Of a stretch of 64,000 nucleotides of DNA, positions 4,309 through 26,649 are shown piece after piece. Origin of the DNA: an uncultured Granulosicoccus sp. (GTDB lineage: Bacteria; Planctomycetota; Planctomycetia; Pirellulales; Lacipirellulaceae). The notes beneath the pieces are model-generated. The model saw only the letters and a program-made list of their open reading frames with translations, did no database searches and had not been told where the DNA came from. Within the stretch, counting starts at the first letter, position 1; each line of letters begins with the position of its first letter. The translations under genes and the position numbers were made by a program. The DNA lies in assembly GCA_964195615.1 (NCBI GenBank), contig CAXMSB010000159.1, forward strand, positions 1,747 to 65,746. Reading direction: 5' to 3'.

Positions 4309-4381
4309 TGTAGGAGGCGTCTCCGATGGCGATCTTATCCAGCAATCCAGCCGGCTATCGCCCTCGGAGAGGCCTCCTACA
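4309..4381. repeat. REP doublet (REPIN), family A
   Basis: TGTAGGAGGCGTCTCCGATGGCGAT ... ATCGCCCTCGGAGAGGCCTCCTACA; same unit at 8291, 13563, 26581. Confidence 0.9.
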
Positions 4382-8290: not shown

Positions 8291-8360
8291 TGTGGGAGGC
8301 GTCTCCGACGGCGACCTGAGGCAAAACGGAAGACGGTCGCCGTCGGAGACGCCTCCCACA
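8291..8360. repeat. REP doublet, family A
   Basis: 25-bp arms TGTGGGAGGCGTCTCCGACGGCGAC / GTCGCCGTCGGAGACGCCTCCCACA. Confidence 0.92.
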
Positions 8361-8371
8361 TGCGTGCCACA

Positions 8372-9277
8372 CTACTCTTTGGTCATCAGAAAAGCGAAAA
8401 TATCGTGTAGCTGTTTGACGGTGAGCATCTCCGACATGTTGTTGGGCATCAGCGAGGTGTCGAGCGCCAGTGTTTCTTCCAGATCGCGTTTGTCGAGGGA
8501 ATGGAATCGCCCGTCCTGCTCGCGGATTTGTACGCTGAAGTTTGTTTCGTTGATCCGCAAGCCGGTAATCGTCTTTCCAGCTTCGGTCAGCACCATCACT
8601 TGTTCGTACTGTGGATCGATGTCTTGCGAGGGGTTGACGATCGATTCCATGATGTATTGGGCCGAGCGACGGCTGGCGATGCGATCGAGCGAAGGGCCGA
8701 TTCCTCCGCCGCGACGGTCCAAGGCATGGCATTTGTTGCAGGTGAATTGCGATTTGGCGTCGAAGAACAGTTTTTCGCCCGCGACCGGCTCGCCTTCGGC
8801 ATACGGTATCCAGGTGTCGTCGCCCACCGAACGGGCCAGGCTACGGACGTAGGCGATGATCTTGCCGATCTGTTCCGGCTTAAGTGATTCGCCCAGTTTC
8901 TTCATTGTTGTGCCGGGCACTCCTCTCTCGATGATGCCGGAGACCGCCTTGTCGGTGCCGTCGCCGTGTAGCCAGCGGTCGTCGGTCAGGTCGGGTCCCT
9001 TGCCGCCGCGGGCCGCCCCGCCGTGGCAGCCGCTGCACAACCCGCGGAACATCGATTTTCCTTCGTCGAGCGCGTCCTGATTCTCCATGTACCGAGCCGA
9101 GAGGCTTCTACCTTCCAGCGGTGCCGCAGCCTCGGCTTCTTCCGCGCCGGCGTTCTGCTGCGCCAAGCCACTGTTGGCAGAGCAGTAAACGGCAAACACT
9201 CCAATAACGGCCCAAATCAATGCTAGTCGATGGTGCTTCATCAAGGTTGTCTTCACAATCGTGTTAAACAGATTCAT
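8372..9277 (-). CDS. Diheme c-type cytochrome, likely electron acceptor of the PQQ dehydrogenase
   Basis: CSGCH and CNKCH, GPDLT/GPSLD, SLMP; signal peptide; ATGA overlap with upstream gene. Confidence 0.88.
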   Translation of the reverse strand: MNLFNTIVKTTLMKHHRLALIWAVIGVFAVYCSANSGLAQQNAGAEEAEAAAPLEGRSLSARYMENQDALDEGKSMFRGLCSGCHGGAARGGKGPDLTDDRWLHGDGTDKAVSGIIERGVPGTTMKKLGESLKPEQIGKIIAYVRSLARSVGDDTWIPYAEGEPVAGEKLFFDAKSQFTCNKCHALDRRGGGIGPSLDRIASRRSAQYIMESIVNPSQDIDPQYEQVMVLTEAGKTITGLRINETNFSVQIREQDGRFHSLDKRDLEETLALDTSLMPNNMSEMLTVKQLHDIFAFLMTKE

Positions 9278-11622
9278 TCACTGACGGGGATGTGCCACTT
9301 GGCCAGCGCCTGTTGCAGTTGGCCCGACTCGCGCAGTTCGCCGAAGGCGCGGTCGAGAGCATCTTTGAGATCAGTTTCATGGCGACGCACCGCGGCGCAA
9401 ATGCCGAAGCGGTCGACGGCTGTTTTCGGTTGCACGAAGCGAATTCTGTCGGGCCATTTTTCCGCGGCGAGCCAATGAGCCCGACTGGAAACGACATAGC
9501 CAACCGGCGCCTCGCGCTTCGCCACGGCGGAGAGGATCGCTTCCAGGTTGGGATACCGATTGGTCTTGCGCCCCGCTAAACCTCGCACGGCAACGCCCGG
9601 CTCGGCGGCGATGGGCAAGGTTTCCAGATCGGTCGCGTCGCCGTCGGCGGGGACCGCGTACACGTAGTTGGCAAAGTAATACGGTTCGCTGTAGGCGACG
9701 CGATCCGCGAAGCGATCGTCGGGCATCACGCCGAGAATCACGTCGCAATATCGTTTCGTGGCCAGCTTCGACGGATAGGAGTCGTGCGACGAATAGGCCC
9801 AGTAAACCTTCAGCGATACGCCCAGCCGCTCCGCCAGGAGTTGGGCGATTTCGTAGTCGACCCCAGCCGGCGCTGGATGCGTTGTGGAAAATGGCAGATT
9901 GTTCTGATCGAGCCCGACGACCAAAGTCCCCCGCGAGCGAATCTTCGCCAGCCCGTCGTAACTCGCACGCGAACGCTGCCGCCCGCTCATCTCCGGCTCA
10001 AGTCCCCGATCAACCTTTCGAATCCGCGCCGTCCCACCGCTTGCCGGTTTCGCCCCCGCCGCCATCGGGAAAGGCACGAAATAGGGCACGTGATACTCAC
10101 GCAGCGCCTCGGCAACGTCGCCTGCTCGGATGATTTCCTCCAGAGCGTCGTCGATGTGCTTCTTGAGCTCAACGTCGCCGCGGCGCATGGCAACGGCGAT
10201 ATTCCAACGATCCTCGGGAACGTACCCCGCCACGATTGCCGCCTTGACCTCCGGCGATTGGTGCAACAACCAACCACTGTTCGACCACAGATAGGCGTAA
10301 TCGATCCCGCCTTTTTCCAGCGAGTTTAGCAGGGCTAACTGTGTGCCGAAGAGTCGCCGCAGATAGCCCCGTTGCCGCAGGCTGTAATCGGCAATCGTGC
10401 CCGCCTGCGTGCCCAGTCGTCGCGATTTTTCTCCCTTCAAGTCGGCCAACGAGGTAACCGGCTCCGCATCTTGGCGAGCGACGAGAAAGTACCCCGTGCC
10501 GTAGTAGGGGCGCGAGTAGAGCACCTTGCCGGCAAGCTGCTCTTCGTCGTCCATCGCGTCGGGGTCGATCGCCGCGCCGAAGGCCAGATCGCTTTCCCGA
10601 TCGAGCAATTGCCCGGTGGCTGTTTCGCTGTGGACGTCGATCCACTCGATCCGCAAGTCGACGCCAAGCTGCTTGGCGACGGCTTGGGCGATGACGACGT
10701 CGAAGCCGGGCCGCTCGGCGTCGGCGCTGGAATAGGGCAGATTGGCTGGGTCCATGCTGACGATCAGCGTACCGCCCGCTTCGATCCGCTTCCACGTATC
10801 GTTCTCGACCACGGCCGACTGTGCGGCAACTTCGACGAGCGGCGGACGATGCACGAGTCCATGCTTGGCGAACAACGGCGAGAACTTGGCATGACGCAAA
10901 CCGCCGTCGACGGCTCGCGAGATTTCCTCCCGCAGCGAACGGTCGTCCGCACGCACCGCGATGCCGATGCTCCAGCGGTGCTTGGAAACAAACTCGTCGA
11001 CCAGCCGCAACTTCAACTGGGGATGCTCCTGGAGATACCAAGCGGTGAAATCAACGTCGATGAGCGCCCCGTCCAGCTTGCTCTGCTCGAAATCGCGTAG
11101 CAACGCTTCCCGCGAAGGAAAGCCGACGATCTCGTGGTCCTGGCGCAAAAGGGACACGGTCCCCGAGACGATGCCCACCCGTTTGCCGCGTAGCTCGGTG
11201 AGCGAGCGGATGCCTCGTTGGTCGCCGCGCACCACGAGGCCGAATTTTCCGGAAGCGTAGGGCGACGTCCAGTCAACCTGCGACGACTGTACCGACTCGT
11301 GTGGCAAGCCAATCACGGCATCGCACTTGCCCGCCTGCAGGTTGTTCAGCCGGCAGGTGTCGCTCGCACAGGTGTGAAACTCGCACCGCCGGCCAAGCTT
11401 TTCGGCCAGCAGCCTCGCCACGGCGATGTCGACCCCTTCCAGCTTGCCCTCGGCCGAGCGCCCAGCGCGCGGCATCGCATTGGTGCAGACACAGAACCGC
11501 AGCACGTCGCTCTGTAGATTGTCATCGGCCCGCGCGACGAGACCGCCCGAAAGCAGCCAGGCGCACAACAGTACAACCAATCGAAAACGTATTTCAGCTA
11601 ATCGCATCAAGATGCCATTCAC
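9274..11622 (-). CDS. Periplasmic protein with three tandem SBP family-3 (XoxJ/MxaJ-like) domains
   Basis: Three repeats of N-(A/L)-(M/L)-P...G(V/F)D..(V/I)A..(L/V)A..LG and W(T)/YS.PY motifs; signal peptide. Confidence 0.85.
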   Translation of the reverse strand: MNGILMRLAEIRFRLVVLLCAWLLSGGLVARADDNLQSDVLRFCVCTNAMPRAGRSAEGKLEGVDIAVARLLAEKLGRRCEFHTCASDTCRLNNLQAGKCDAVIGLPHESVQSSQVDWTSPYASGKFGLVVRGDQRGIRSLTELRGKRVGIVSGTVSLLRQDHEIVGFPSREALLRDFEQSKLDGALIDVDFTAWYLQEHPQLKLRLVDEFVSKHRWSIGIAVRADDRSLREEISRAVDGGLRHAKFSPLFAKHGLVHRPPLVEVAAQSAVVENDTWKRIEAGGTLIVSMDPANLPYSSADAERPGFDVVIAQAVAKQLGVDLRIEWIDVHSETATGQLLDRESDLAFGAAIDPDAMDDEEQLAGKVLYSRPYYGTGYFLVARQDAEPVTSLADLKGEKSRRLGTQAGTIADYSLRQRGYLRRLFGTQLALLNSLEKGGIDYAYLWSNSGWLLHQSPEVKAAIVAGYVPEDRWNIAVAMRRGDVELKKHIDDALEEIIRAGDVAEALREYHVPYFVPFPMAAGAKPASGGTARIRKVDRGLEPEMSGRQRSRASYDGLAKIRSRGTLVVGLDQNNLPFSTTHPAPAGVDYEIAQLLAERLGVSLKVYWAYSSHDSYPSKLATKRYCDVILGVMPDDRFADRVAYSEPYYFANYVYAVPADGDATDLETLPIAAEPGVAVRGLAGRKTNRYPNLEAILSAVAKREAPVGYVVSSRAHWLAAEKWPDRIRFVQPKTAVDRFGICAAVRRHETDLKDALDRAFGELRESGQLQQALAKWHIPVSE

Positions 11623-11642
11623 TTTCAGACAGGGACACGCCG

Positions 11643-13412
11643 TTATTCAGGCAACGCAAACACAAACAGCGTATTCCCCTTGCGAGCGTCTCGCATCCAG
11701 GGAGCACCATCGCCCATGAAGCCGGCGGTCCAGCCGCCCCAGCCCGAGCAAACGGCAACGTACTGCCGACCGTCGAGTTCGTAGGTAATCGGCGAGGCGT
11801 GATGCCCGCTGCCGCATTGGTAGTACCAGAGGGCTTCGCCCGACTCGGCGTCGTAAGCGGTAAAGAAACCCTCGGCGTCGCCGGTGAACACCAGTCCGCC
11901 GCCCGTGGCCAACACGCCGGCCACCATCGGCGAACGAGTCTCGACTTCCCACTTGATGTCGCCCGTTCGCACGTCAATCGCCTTGAACGCCCCGGAGGCT
12001 TCGTTTTCGATCATCGTCAGCGAGCTTCCCCAATATGGCTGGCCCTTGATGAAAAACGCCTTGCCGGAGGTAAACTTCGCACAGTTGTTGATCACCGGCA
12101 CGTAGGCACACTGGGTGCCGGGGTGGTAGGCCATAGGGTTCCATTCCTTGCCGCCCGCCGCGCCGGGACAGACCCGCACGCCTTCGTCGTTGGGCATTGC
12201 CGCTTCGCTCACGAAGGGACGCCCCGTCTCGGGATCCAAGCCGTCGACCCCCTTCGAGCGATCGGTCCAGGTCACCTCGCAGAACGGTTTGCCGTAGAGA
12301 AATTTGCCGTTCTCGCGGTCGAGACAGTAAAAATATCCATTGCGATGCGCCTGCACGATCGCCTTCACTTTCTTGCCCTTCACTTCGGTTTCGACCAGCA
12401 CGGGAGTGTTCACGCCGTCGTAGTCCCACACGTCGTGCGGACTGTTTTGAAAGTGCCATTTGTAGGTGCCATCGTCGGGGTTGAGTGCGATGATGCCGCA
12501 GGTGTAGAGATTGTCGCCGGGGCGGACCTCGCCGTTGAAGTCGGGCGACGGGTTGCCGATGCCCCAGTACAGGGTGTTGAGATCAGGATCGTAGGTGCCG
12601 GTGACCCAAGCGGAGCCGCCGCCGGTGAGCCACGACGCGCCGCCCCAGCTCTTGAGCGCTTCCTTGGCATGGGCGGAATCATCGTCGGCGCTAGGCACGG
12701 TATAAAATCGCCACTCGCGTTTGCCAGTCTCGACGTTGTAGGCGTCGATGAAACCGCGAATGCCGTACTCCGCGCCGCTGATGCCGATGATCAGCTTGTC
12801 CTTAATCACCAGCGGAGCAAGCGTCGCGCTGTAGGCCAGCTTGTAGATGTCGCCGACTTCCTTGCCGTCGTCGCCTTCGACGGTGATCGCTTCGTCCCAC
12901 AGCTCTTGGCCCGTGTGACGATCAATGCAAATCAGATGGGCGTCGAGCGTGGTCATGTACAGCCGATCGCCCCAGGCGGCAAAGCCCCGATTCACGGCGT
13001 CGCAACAAAGGGCCAGGTTGTCGGGAAGCGACTTCTGATAGTGCCACAACTGCGAACCAGTGCGGCAATCGATCGCGTAGGCATGGTTCCAGGGCGTAGT
13101 GATGTACATCACGCCGTCGATCACCAACGGAGTACACTCGAACCCGTCGAGCACGCCCGTCTGAAACGACCAAACGGGGATCAGCTTCGACACGTTTTCC
13201 TTGTTGATCTTGTTGAGCGACGAATAACGATTGCTGTCGTAGGTGCGACCGTACATCAGCCAACTGGTGTTGTTCTCTTGGGCGTCGAGCAGTTCCTGCT
13301 GCTCCACGGGCCCCACGGGTTCGGCCGCCTCGACCTTCCCGCCGCCCAGCAGCGGCAGCGAACCGATGACCATGCACAACGACAACCAACCGGTAATGCG
13401 AATAGCAGACAT
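11643..13412 (-). CDS. Type I PQQ-dependent alcohol dehydrogenase with lanthanide-type active site (XoxF/ExaF/PedH-like)
   Basis: WLMYG, LCCDAVNRG, GAEYG, WGIGNP, WDYDG, GGKEWNP; SD AAGGAG before ATG 13412; no heme domain. Confidence 0.93.
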   Translation of the reverse strand: MSAIRITGWLSLCMVIGSLPLLGGGKVEAAEPVGPVEQQELLDAQENNTSWLMYGRTYDSNRYSSLNKINKENVSKLIPVWSFQTGVLDGFECTPLVIDGVMYITTPWNHAYAIDCRTGSQLWHYQKSLPDNLALCCDAVNRGFAAWGDRLYMTTLDAHLICIDRHTGQELWDEAITVEGDDGKEVGDIYKLAYSATLAPLVIKDKLIIGISGAEYGIRGFIDAYNVETGKREWRFYTVPSADDDSAHAKEALKSWGGASWLTGGGSAWVTGTYDPDLNTLYWGIGNPSPDFNGEVRPGDNLYTCGIIALNPDDGTYKWHFQNSPHDVWDYDGVNTPVLVETEVKGKKVKAIVQAHRNGYFYCLDRENGKFLYGKPFCEVTWTDRSKGVDGLDPETGRPFVSEAAMPNDEGVRVCPGAAGGKEWNPMAYHPGTQCAYVPVINNCAKFTSGKAFFIKGQPYWGSSLTMIENEASGAFKAIDVRTGDIKWEVETRSPMVAGVLATGGGLVFTGDAEGFFTAYDAESGEALWYYQCGSGHHASPITYELDGRQYVAVCSGWGGWTAGFMGDGAPWMRDARKGNTLFVFALPE

Positions 13413-13562
13413 GCGAAGTATCTCCTTAAGGACGAGCATCAAAAAAAAGGTGATCGCGACATCACGGACAAGACCCGCGAGTATGGCGAGTTCGCCGGAC
13501 GAAATCAAGTATCATTTCCTGCGTGGCCGGAGGACTGTGGCGTGTCTCACACCGCGAAATCT

Positions 13563-13587
13563 TGTGGGAGGCGTCTCCGACGGCGAT
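13563..13587 (+). repeat. Solo REP, family A
   Basis: TGTGGGAGGCGTCTCCGACGGCGAT. Confidence 0.85.
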
Positions 13588-13715: not shown

Positions 13716-15059
13716 CTAGCTGACGGCAGCGTCTACCCTCGTCTGCCTGGAGGGATGAGGAACTCTCTGGTGAAGAGTTCGCAAGGGCGTTTGCACTTCC
13801 AAAGCGCGGTGGATCAGATTCCGCACGAGGCCGGCGAAGACTGGATCTTCATTGACCCAAGGCGCACAGGCAACCGACCCAGCGTTGAAAACCCAGCCAC
13901 CTCCTGGTGTCTCGCGAAAGACCATGTACGCCGGCCCCTCGCGATTCTTGCCGATCGCCAGAACCTCGACGTCGGCGCTCTCTTTGGTGATCTTGTCGGT
14001 TTCGTAGCCACTTGCCCCGAACAGTTGGGGCGTGCCCGTGGATGAAGTGATCTGCTTTTCGTCGAACGTGTCACCATCCTTCACGCCGATCCCGTCGAAC
14101 ACCCAGTGCCTGGCATTGGCCACTTGATAGCCGGCATAGGTCCGGTATCCCCAAGCGTTGTACGAAGCGCCCAGCAATCGCGAGACGGGCGCCCGGTCTG
14201 TCTTGAAATTGCGGACCACGACTGCCCCTTCCACAAACTCCACCATTCGGTAAATGTTGTTACCCGAAATGAAAGCCGCCTTGCCGCCGCCGGCCAGATA
14301 GGAAGTTAATCGGCCCTGCATCTCTTCCGACCAATACTCGCTATGCACGTTGAAAAACAGCAGCTTGGCTTGCGTGGGCCAAGGGTCGTAGGCCAGGTCG
14401 TGATCGGAAAAGAGTCCGTACTCGACGCCCTCACGCTCCAGGAATCGCAGCAGGGCCCATTCCGCTCGGGCCAGATGTGAGAACGACTCGATCGGCGAGG
14501 CTTCCAGATCGCGCAGGTCCTCGTCCAACATAGAGTTCGGCCGGGCCAGCGGTAGCGGCACCGCGGGCACATAGCGGCGATCTCCCAACGTGAATCGCAG
14601 ATTCATAACCCTCATCAGGGTCTTCAAAGCTCGCAGCGGAAACGGCGTGCCGCGATCGTGGTAGTTCGAGAGCCCACCGAAGTGATTGTACGCTTGCCAG
14701 GTGTTCGTGGAACAGACGACCGCGACGTCGACTTGCCGGGCCGGCTTGATGATGATCGGCAGTCGAAACGTCACGTTGGCGTCTTCCCGGTGTGCAAGTT
14801 CCAGCAGATAGAGCCCGCTCTTCAGCGAGGAGGTGTCGATCGAGAGCTGAGGCTGCCAATTGAAACCCTTCCAGAAATGGTATTTTCCTGATTGGATGCA
14901 GGCCGGCAGTTGCTCCTGCCAACCGGTCTCGACGCTGCGCTCGCCGAGACGCAACAGCTTGGCCTGCGCGGGCCGGGTGGAATGGACGCAAATCTTCGCC
15001 GCCTCGCCCCTCGCTACCGAAGGATCGCTCAGGTAGGCCACCAGCGACGGCAGCCGCAC
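13716..15059 (-). CDS. N,N-dimethylformamidase large-subunit-like protein (DUF6605 type); 5' end possibly truncated
   Basis: STNTWQAYNHFGG, HSEYWS, GGKAAFISGNNIY, GASGYETD, GGWVFNAGS. Confidence 0.8.
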   Translation of the reverse strand: MRLPSLVAYLSDPSVARGEAAKICVHSTRPAQAKLLRLGERSVETGWQEQLPACIQSGKYHFWKGFNWQPQLSIDTSSLKSGLYLLELAHREDANVTFRLPIIIKPARQVDVAVVCSTNTWQAYNHFGGLSNYHDRGTPFPLRALKTLMRVMNLRFTLGDRRYVPAVPLPLARPNSMLDEDLRDLEASPIESFSHLARAEWALLRFLEREGVEYGLFSDHDLAYDPWPTQAKLLFFNVHSEYWSEEMQGRLTSYLAGGGKAAFISGNNIYRMVEFVEGAVVVRNFKTDRAPVSRLLGASYNAWGYRTYAGYQVANARHWVFDGIGVKDGDTFDEKQITSSTGTPQLFGASGYETDKITKESADVEVLAIGKNREGPAYMVFRETPGGGWVFNAGSVACAPWVNEDPVFAGLVRNLIHRALEVQTPLRTLHQRVPHPSRQTRVDAAVS

Positions 15060-15066
15060 CCGCGTC

Positions 15067-15516
15067 GGCCGCCTTGCTCGCGGCGTAAACAGCTTCGCCT
15101 TCCAATTTCAAGGGAACGGCCACCGTGGAGAAGTTCACAATTCTCCCGGCCTCCTGACGCCGCATGAGTTTTGCCGCTTCGCGACAACACAGAAACGTGC
15201 CGGAAAAATTCGTGTCGAATACCCGTCGCACCGTCTTGTGTGGGGTGAGCATGCAGTGATTCATCGAAGCGATGCCCGCATTGTTCACCAAGACATCGAG
15301 TTGCCCATATTCCTTTCGCACCTTTCGAAACAACGTCTGCACCGCGTCCTCGTCGGCCACGTCGACACAGAAATGTTGATATTCGGGATGATCGAGTCCC
15401 GACTCACTTCGACTACAGCCCACCACGCGAAAACCGGCATCGAGATAGTGTTCGGCAAGGCCGCGTCCAATGCCCTTGCGAGCACCCGTAATCAACATGA
15501 CTTGATCACTGCTCAC
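15067..15516 (-). pseudogene. FabG-like SDR truncated just after YxxxK
   Basis: TGARKGIG, NNAG, YAASK, then homology is lost and the frame runs over the next gene out of register. Confidence 0.85.
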
Positions 15517-26580: not shown

Positions 26581-26649
26581 TGTGGGAGGCGTCTCCGACG
26601 GCGACAGTCCCAATCCAAGCTCATATCGCCGTCGGAGACGCCTCCTACA
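26581..26649. repeat. REP doublet, family A, at left island boundary
   Basis: TGTGGGAGGCGTCTCCGACGGCGA / TCGCCGTCGGAGACGCCTCCTACA. Confidence 0.92.

Follow-up and report, generated by a model that had tools for sequence, protein, structure and literature searches.

We analysed a 64,000-nucleotide stretch of planctomycete DNA (contig CAXMSB010000159.1 of assembly GCA_964195615.1; hereafter the window) that carries, on its minus strand, a cassette of three co-directional open reading frames (ORFs). They encode a predicted alcohol dehydrogenase (ADH) dependent on pyrroloquinoline quinone (PQQ) (11643..13412, a 589-aa precursor), a secreted 777-aa protein made of three solute-binding-protein domains (triple SBP; 9274..11607, or from 11622 if an alternative start is used) and a dihaem c-type cytochrome of 301 aa (8372..9277). 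On balance, we favour the view that these genes form a self-contained periplasmic module for alcohol oxidation, in which a lanthanide-type dehydrogenase would work together with a dihaem cytochrome and a triple J-like accessory protein, and for which PQQ would be obtained from outside.

The dehydrogenase carries a lanthanide-type ligand set

The ADH matched the NCBIfam model for PQQ-dependent dehydrogenases of the methanol/ethanol family (TIGR03075) with 625.5 bits (cut-off 480) and the Pfam PQQ family PF01011 with 308 bits, and it bears a Sec-type signal peptide (MSAIRITGWLSLCMVIGSLPLLGGGKVEA/AEP). Its closest solved structure is PedH (6zcv/6zcw; 427 bits, about 43% identity). We aligned the protein with MAFFT to references taken from the search alignments of the PDB, namely PedH (6zcv), ExaA (1flg), ADH-IIB (1kv9), XoxF1-AM1 (6oc5), XoxF-5G (6dam), XoxF2-SolV (4mae) and MxaF (4tqo and 1lrw), and to the XoxF of S. 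meliloti (pSymB); the lengths of the PDB-derived sequences agreed with the reported ranges. In this alignment (589-aa numbering), the vicinal pair Cys136-Cys137 (13002..13007), which would form the disulfide ring over PQQ, falls on C131/C132 of PedH, the putative metal ligand Glu215 in GAEYG (12762..12776) on E199, and the putative metal ligand Asn287 in GNPSP (12543..12557; GNP, 12543-12551) on N281. The WDYDG motif (12414..12428) provides D330, which is predicted to act as catalytic base and to bind the metal, in the column of PedH D323, and the extra aspartate D332 in the column of PedH D325. The latter position is likewise Asp in XoxF1-AM1, XoxF-5G and XoxF2-SolV, whereas the calcium enzymes have Ala (both MxaF), Ser (ExaA) or Thr (ADH-IIB). 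PedH D323 and D325 are published lanthanide ligands (PMC12723673). In addition, R357 aligns with the PQQ-binding Arg, and the Trp aligned with PedH W263 is retained. The Cys pair, Glu, Asn, D330, D332 and R357 are invariant in 34 planctomycete orthologues, and the Asp at position 332 is also present in a verrucomicrobial sister sequence. Judged by its sequence, the ADH is a PQQ dehydrogenase of the methanol/ethanol family with a complete lanthanide-type ligand set, and from this motif we infer that it would depend on lanthanides.

An earlier reading of the bare DNA (the original prediction) had placed WDYDG at about 12414-12428, where it lies exactly, and the Glu, Asn and vicinal Cys residues it listed are all confirmed. 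It had set the D-x-D motif against Ala or Ser of the calcium enzymes and proposed checking that the second Asp sits at the lanthanide-ligand position; the alignment bears out both points, adding the Thr of ADH-IIB. Its view that GGKEWNP (12135-12155) is of the ethanol type rather than XoxF-like was right as well, since the region resembles PedH and ExaA and not XoxF or MxaF. By sequence, the ADH is nearer to the ethanol-type than to the methanol-type enzymes. The PedH tunnel residues F412 and W561 were considered as a guide to substrate size and discarded: the ADH has Ala and Phe at these positions, but the Ala is shared with XoxF and MxaF, so that the comparison says little. The genome further encodes a second PQQ dehydrogenase paralogue, on a 3-kb contig (C235, positions ~64-1761), which is about 31% identical to the ADH of the window and likewise shows a Cys pair and D-x-D (WDRDP) at the metal site.

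The dehydrogenase belongs to a planctomycete clade of its own

We next placed the ADH in a maximum-likelihood tree of 66 sequences with SH-aLRT support; the XoxF side of this tree was limited to solved sequences of the XoxF5, XoxF2 and MxaF types. The protein fell within a clade of 34 planctomycete sequences (support 100) to which a verrucomicrobial sequence is sister (99). This group stands apart from ADH-IIB, from PedH together with ExaA (a pair with support 100) and from a clade of XoxF and MxaF (100); branches deeper in the tree lack resolution. By this placement the ADH is not a XoxF and belongs to a separate Planctomycetota clade with a verrucomicrobial sister; nor is it demonstrably of the PedH/ExaF type, although PedH is its best solved match. 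The locus had been described as a XoxF-like operon, a description that must be given up in favour of a separate ADH clade, and the phylogenetic comparison proposed along with it did return a distinct, supported clade, but one outside both the XoxF/MxaF and the PedH/ExaA clades.

When each prokaryotic species was represented by one genome, scanning retrieved about 45 loci with ADH relatives of 71-86% protein identity, nearly all in Planctomycetota metagenome-assembled genomes (MAGs) of the Pirellulales, Planctomycetaceae, Gemmataceae and Isosphaeraceae. On every contig of sufficient length, the ADH was followed by the triple SBP (50-62% identity) and the dihaem cytochrome (50-76%), and the order ADH, triple SBP, cytochrome was kept across all four groups; in total, some 40 planctomycete MAGs conserve the cassette. 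More than 100 clusters at ≥74% identity to the ADH were found among 5.8 billion proteins, all of them metagenomic and generically named. Even so, the cassette is rare among planctomycetes: of 201 genomes sampled evenly across the phylum, only the window's own contained an orthologue. The supplements of the Voutsinos papers gave no planctomycete PQQ-ADH entries. That the DNA comes from a planctomycete, originally proposed as probable, is confirmed by the close relatives, all of them Planctomycetota MAGs, and by an ArgS protein 63-71% identical to those of Pirellulales-type genomes.

Two histories can be considered for the cassette. Ancient vertical descent with loss is suggested by the ADH sub-clades, which track taxonomy and the ranking of ArgS identities. 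Horizontal transfer within the phylum is suggested by the identity of the ADH between orders (about 78%; range across orders 77-92%), which is far above that of ArgS (about 55%), and by the flanks of the cassette, which are never syntenic.

Several further observations concern the relatives. Two MAGs labelled Deltaproteobacteria and Alcaligenaceae (L010 and L016) carry planctomycete-type cassettes of 79-80% identity that nest in planctomycete sub-clades; these contigs are probably mis-binned. Loci of Acidobacteriota and Gemmatimonadota (L040-L054) encode D-x-D dehydrogenases 42-52% identical to the ADH, with a related dihaem cytochrome upstream and no SBP, and at four loci (L055, L057, L058 and L075) Leu-Tyr replaces the Cys pair and D-x-D is kept. 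Genes for DUF1559/N-methyl proteins lie near the cassette in 13 loci, which we attribute to chance given their abundance in planctomycetes. The clustering of neighbouring genes in related loci was blurred by shadow ORFs in GC-rich DNA.

The putative accessory protein is a fusion of three diverged J-like domains

The protein encoded between the ADH and the cytochrome begins with a signal peptide, which is followed by three solute-binding domains of family 3 (PF00497, in three stretches): D1 (10858..11511), with four invariant cysteines (C39, C80, C85 and C95), D2 (10093..10797) and D3 (9298..9954). A J-like protein had been predicted here. A binding-protein gene does follow the ADH, but it is a fusion of three diverged domains that score only 57 (D1), 76 (D2) and 59 bits (D3) with the XoxJ model TIGR03871, compared to a cut-off of 212 and to 296 bits for S. 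meliloti XoxJ; the whole protein totals 177 bits and remains under the cut-off. D1 is described somewhat better by amino-acid-binding models (LAO-type, 71 bits). Each domain nonetheless aligns along the full length of genuine XoxJ with 22-27% identity. The N-terminal XoxJ motif (C)xDPxNLPxS, CADPANLPMS in XoxJ itself, is retained in D2 (MDPANLPYS, 10729-10755) and D3 (LDQNNLPFS, 9886-9912) and degenerate in D1. Adjacency of the SBP gene to a quinoprotein dehydrogenase gene was kept in all loci.

In a tree of the domains, each of D1, D2 and D3 formed a monophyletic group that spans planctomycete orders (99-100). At the verrucomicrobial sister locus there are two genes of one domain each, gene A being sister to D2 (SH-aLRT 95) and gene B to D3 (91), and the Entotheonella loci have one such gene. 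Because of this domain tree and these separate genes, the triple SBP reads as the product of an old fusion between J-like genes that had diverged beforehand, and not as a recent triplication. The fused form, with three domains in 777 aa as compared to about 280 aa for single-domain XoxJ/MoxJ, is full-length in about 30 loci and had only 2-3 full-length matches among 1.84 billion cluster representatives. An AlphaFold2 (AF2) model showed three folded domains with confidence (pLDDT) values of 80-95, joined by linkers (residues 259-268 and 516-550) below 50, and the arrangement of the domains relative to each other was not fixed (predicted template modelling score, pTM, 0.45). The best Foldseek matches to this model were the tandem domains of GlnPQ (6h30) and the periplasmic domains of BvgS/EvgS; Foldseek failed to separate XoxJ from amino-acid-binding proteins, all of which share one fold. 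Growth that depends on XoxF requires both XoxG and XoxJ, and the latter has been proposed to activate XoxF (PMC7391723). By its position, descent and weak similarity, the triple SBP would be an accessory factor of the XoxJ kind.

The cytochrome combines a cytochrome cL-like and a planctomycete-type haem domain

The third gene encodes a cytochrome with two CxxCH sites. The N-terminal domain is cytochrome cL-like, with CSGCH at 9023-9037 and cytochrome cL (2c8s, 9e-11) as its PDB match. The C-terminal domain is a planctomycete-type haem domain, with CNKCH at 8726-8740, and matched 7zs0 (4e-22), a dihaem cytochrome of high potential from Kuenenia, an anammox planctomycete (PMC11791136). In line with this composition, the protein exceeded the cut-off of TIGR02603 (107 bits; cut-off 68) and stayed well under that of the MoxG model TIGR03872 (53.9 bits; cut-off 147.8). 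The cytochrome gene announced in the original prediction is therefore present, but its product has two haems and departs from MoxG. Fusion of a second haem to a cL-like acceptor suggests that the protein contains its own relay towards the respiratory chain. As for gene order, the succession of enzyme, J-like protein and cytochrome is real, yet it mirrors mxaFJG and not xoxFJG as had been stated: canonical xox clusters, such as those of S. meliloti and of M. extorquens (PMC7391723), run F-G-J.

The genome assembly lacks the PQQ synthesis genes found beside the cassette in its relatives

The genome assembly to which the window belongs is 93% complete and comprises 402 contigs. In tblastn searches with pqqA-E probes, first from S. 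meliloti pSymB and then from a planctomycete set (L002), together with a regular expression for PqqA, this assembly yielded none of pqqA, pqqB, pqqC and pqqD, and its PqqE-like matches were weak radical-SAM ones only. The PqqC model TIGR02111 gave no match either, but neither did it match control genomes. The window had been noted to hold no pqq genes, which is correct, and a search of the whole genome had been recommended; with pqqA-D not found there as well, the absence is more informative than had been supposed.

In four members of the window's own sub-clade (L002, L003, L005 and L006) and at many other loci, pqqA-B-C-D-E directly follow the cytochrome gene; some Gemmataceae loci have pqq upstream instead. 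The relative L089, 92% identical, shows the tight order MatE-ADH-SBP-CYT-PqqA-B-C-D-E. Its DNA homology with the window (82.6% over 5176 nt, from 13522 to 8370) is confined to the leader and the three genes, ends at the stop codon of the cytochrome gene and leaves both flanks unrelated. A MATE-family gene adjoins the ADH/pqq cluster in eight loci (L001, L003, L007, L013, L019, L030, L032 and L089). In the versions that bear pqq, this transporter could serve to export PQQ; no orthologue of it exists in the window's genome. In a random sample of 201 genomes of the phylum, pqqC was nearly absent, with 4 weak matches. Nine planctomycete genomes with the cassette, including ones of Pirellulales type and of Gemmataceae, did contain it, and it was missing in all eight cassette-bearing genomes searched of an Isosphaeraceae sub-clade (7.7-16 Mb). 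We conclude that pqq and the cassette travel together in this phylum and that pqq has been lost at least three times, the cassette being retained under selection. The window's genome has lost or lacks the pqqABCDE genes present downstream in its nearest relatives. Since none of the eight Isosphaeraceae-subclade genomes has pqqC, a cassette without pqq appears to be a stable state, and PQQ scavenging is therefore the likely mode. Use of exogenous PQQ is the simplest reading.

Alternatively, the organism may make PQQ from an operon lying in the roughly 7% of its genome that was not assembled or binned, and would then be no PQQ auxotroph. Completeness and the number of contigs leave room for this, and the closest relatives all bear pqq. 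In those relatives, however, pqq is contiguous with the cytochrome gene, and here the corresponding junction lies unbroken within a contig longer than 64 kb, where the cytochrome gene gives way to a hairpin of repetitive extragenic palindrome (REP)-like sequence and then to rsfS and argS. Chance alone would have to account for the absence of five pqq genes and of the MATE gene, and other cassette-bearing planctomycetes with large assemblies are without pqqC too. We thus judge a hidden pqq operon to be rather unlikely.

The known uptake routes are LutH for lanthanophores and PqqU for PQQ. The Plug domain of TonB-dependent receptors gave no match in the window's genome but did match in control genomes, so that these routes are missing.

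The genome also encodes two proteins of tetrahydromethanopterin (H4MPT)-linked C1 metabolism, the formaldehyde-activating enzyme Fae (239 bits, C105:272-745) and the methenyl-H4MPT cyclohydrolase Mch (380 bits, C231:13218-14135), which thus share a genome with the ADH. The H4MPT formaldehyde pathway of planctomycetes has long been known and is still puzzling. One may speculate that the cassette is the front end of this pathway, the ADH acting as a lanthanide-dependent dehydrogenase of methanol or another C1-yielding alcohol and the triple J-like protein capturing and loading scavenged PQQ and/or lanthanides in the periplasm; we regard this as unlikely. If true, some planctomycetes would be rare-earth-dependent methanol oxidisers, and such capture and loading would explain the survival of the cassette in lineages lacking both pqq and TonB-dependent receptors.

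Metal use and integrity of the cassette

A further possibility is that the ADH uses calcium or is promiscuous for metals, D-x-D being a trait of the lineage that does not switch the enzyme to lanthanides. Only for a few clades (XoxF and PedH/ExaF) is metal use verified, the ADH clade lies outside every characterised one, and surveys predict mixed calcium and lanthanide use within single clades (bioRxiv 10.64898/2026.07.10.737718; PMC11996626). In our alignment, by contrast, the tested enzymes with Asp at this position are all lanthanide-dependent and the calcium enzymes all have Ala, Ser or Thr, and the Asp does not vary in the 34 orthologues or the verrucomicrobial sister. Calcium use is, in our estimate, distinctly improbable, and we retain the lanthanide-type assignment.

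Compared to the pqq-bearing relative L089, the ratio of nonsynonymous to synonymous substitution rates (dN/dS) was 0.056 for the ADH, 0.13 for the SBP and 0.12 for the cytochrome gene; the cassette is under strong purifying selection. That it should be a decaying remnant, with the ADH an inactive apo-protein heading for loss now that pqq and the MATE gene are gone and the cassette sits amid housekeeping genes with REP-like repeats at its bounds, is very improbable in view of the three intact reading frames with dN/dS of 0.06-0.13, the complete set of catalytic residues and the persistence of the pqq-less state throughout the Isosphaeraceae sub-clade.

Boundaries of the cassette and neighbouring genes

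The ADH gene starts at the ATG at 13412, with an AAGGAG Shine-Dalgarno sequence 8 nt ahead. A longer, TTG-initiated ORF was judged to be an artefact because the orthologues (P0001 and that of L089) are likewise 589 aa long. The gap between the ADH and SBP genes is 20-35 nt, and the start codon of the cytochrome gene overlaps the SBP stop codon as ATGA, a spacing that suggests co-transcription of the three genes. Upstream lies a conserved leader or promoter region (13413..13522, minus strand), defined by the start of the L089 homology at 13522. Scanning the leader returned no sigma-70 consensus promoter, a scan that is uninformative for a planctomycete. Downstream, 12 nt past the cytochrome stop codon, a REP-like inverted pair (8292..8359) forms a perfect 26-bp hairpin with a folding energy of -64.3 kcal/mol (z = -8.7), which probably marks the 3' end of the operon. 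An Rfam scan of the cassette gave only chance matches to microRNA models, on this hairpin. A single REP-like 22-mer (13564..13585) is located 42 nt beyond the upstream homology boundary, so REP-like copies bracket the cassette just outside both ends of the L089 homology.

The REP-like 22-mer, CGCCGTCGGAGACGCCTCCCAC, has 67 dispersed copies in the genome (about 16 per Mb), frequently paired in inverted orientation, which yields hairpins of very high stability, and gives rise to recurring 'GGVSDGD' or 'SPSETPPT' in spurious ORF translations. Besides those at the cassette (8292-8359 and 13564-13585), the window contains copies at 4310-4331 and 26582-26648. The cassette has housekeeping neighbours, namely rsfS, argS, genes for phosphoglycerate mutase and kinase, and lptF/G. 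An ORF at 13716-15059, similar to the C-terminal domain of the N,N-dimethylformamidase beta subunit (DMFA2_C), overlaps by about 630 nt with an ORF at 14431-15516 that opens with 150 residues of a short-chain dehydrogenase; a frameshift, a mis-called start or truly overlapping genes may account for the arrangement. A gene for an OprB-type porin lies at 1628-2995.

Discussion

We propose the following working model for the periplasmic module. The ADH would be exported by its signal peptide and bind PQQ, and Glu215, Asn287, Asp330 and the extra Asp332 would hold a metal ion, most likely a light lanthanide, as Lewis acid for the oxidation of an alcohol. Electrons would pass from the ADH to the cL-like first haem domain of the cytochrome and from its second haem domain to the respiratory chain, such that one protein could perform the jobs that cytochromes cL and cH share in methylotrophs. 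The triple J-like protein would serve as an accessory for activation or cofactor loading of the ADH, as XoxJ may do for XoxF; the three domains, which diverged long ago, probably have different jobs. In the genome studied here, the module is uncoupled from pqqABCDE and the MATE gene, so that the holoenzyme would most likely form on PQQ from other organisms.

Several points weigh against this model. The pqq genes could reside in unassembled DNA of the 93%-complete, 402-contig genome. The known LutH and PqqU routes, by which lanthanides and PQQ could have entered, are missing. The D-x-D motif predicts lanthanide dependence without proving it, and the ADH clade is represented by metagenomic relatives alone, with generic names only. 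Finally, the SBP domains and the cytochrome score far under the curated XoxJ and MoxG cut-offs, and their roles are read from position and weak similarity.

D-x-D PQQ dehydrogenases are now widely predicted across many phyla (bioRxiv 10.64898/2026.07.10.737718; PMC11996626). The motif alone is thus not surprising, and the interest of the cassette lies in its accessory architecture, its variants with and without pqq and its possible link to H4MPT. To our knowledge, only XoxF- and PedH/ExaF-type lanthanide enzymes have been tested for metal use. Because the ADH clade is distinct, tightly conserved and without a cultured or characterised member, it offers a clean test of the motif as a predictor of metal use beyond the known clades. 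The three-domain J-like protein could help to reveal what XoxJ-type proteins do, and the two-haem cytochrome suggests a shortened electron path. As natural cassettes exist both with and without pqqABCDE, and some planctomycetes combine a PQQ enzyme with the lack of PQQ synthesis and of a TonB receptor, these bacteria should be good subjects for studying cofactor cross-feeding. The presence of Fae and Mch in the same genome makes the old question of what feeds the H4MPT pathway of planctomycetes testable by one enzyme assay.

Comparison with known systems

Among characterised enzymes, PedH of Pseudomonas putida KT2440 and the ExaF type share with the ADH the same ligand set of Cys pair, Glu, Asn and Asp-x-Asp, and PedH also has in common with it the ethanol-type GxKxWxPMAY region and the C-terminal region. 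The ADH differs from PedH by Phe in place of Trp at PedH positions 285 and 561 and by Ala at 412, and in having a triple SBP and a dihaem cytochrome as accessory genes. The XoxF/XoxG/XoxJ systems likewise consist of three components, a dehydrogenase with D-x-D, a cL-type cytochrome and a periplasmic binding protein, and in many organisms pqq genes are nearby, as in the relatives of the cassette. In contrast to these systems, the ADH is about 35% identical to S. meliloti XoxF, the genes are ordered F-J-G instead of F-G-J, J is tripled and highly diverged, and G carries a second haem domain.

For fused accessory proteins of a lanthanide dehydrogenase, there is a precedent in the Planctomycetes-Verrucomicrobia-Chlamydiae (PVC) superphylum: cytochrome cGJ of Methylacidiphilum fumariolicum SolV, reportedly a XoxG-XoxJ fusion described by Versantvoort et al. 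in 2019. That protein joins one cytochrome to one J domain, whereas the window's cassette fuses three J-like domains and keeps a separate cytochrome with two haems. Family-3 binding domains strung together by linkers, as in the triple SBP, are also seen in GlnPQ (6h30) and in BvgS/EvgS. There they form part of a permease of the ABC type or of a sensor kinase, whereas the triple SBP is predicted to be a free-standing, secreted protein of three domains that is genetically linked to a quinoprotein dehydrogenase.

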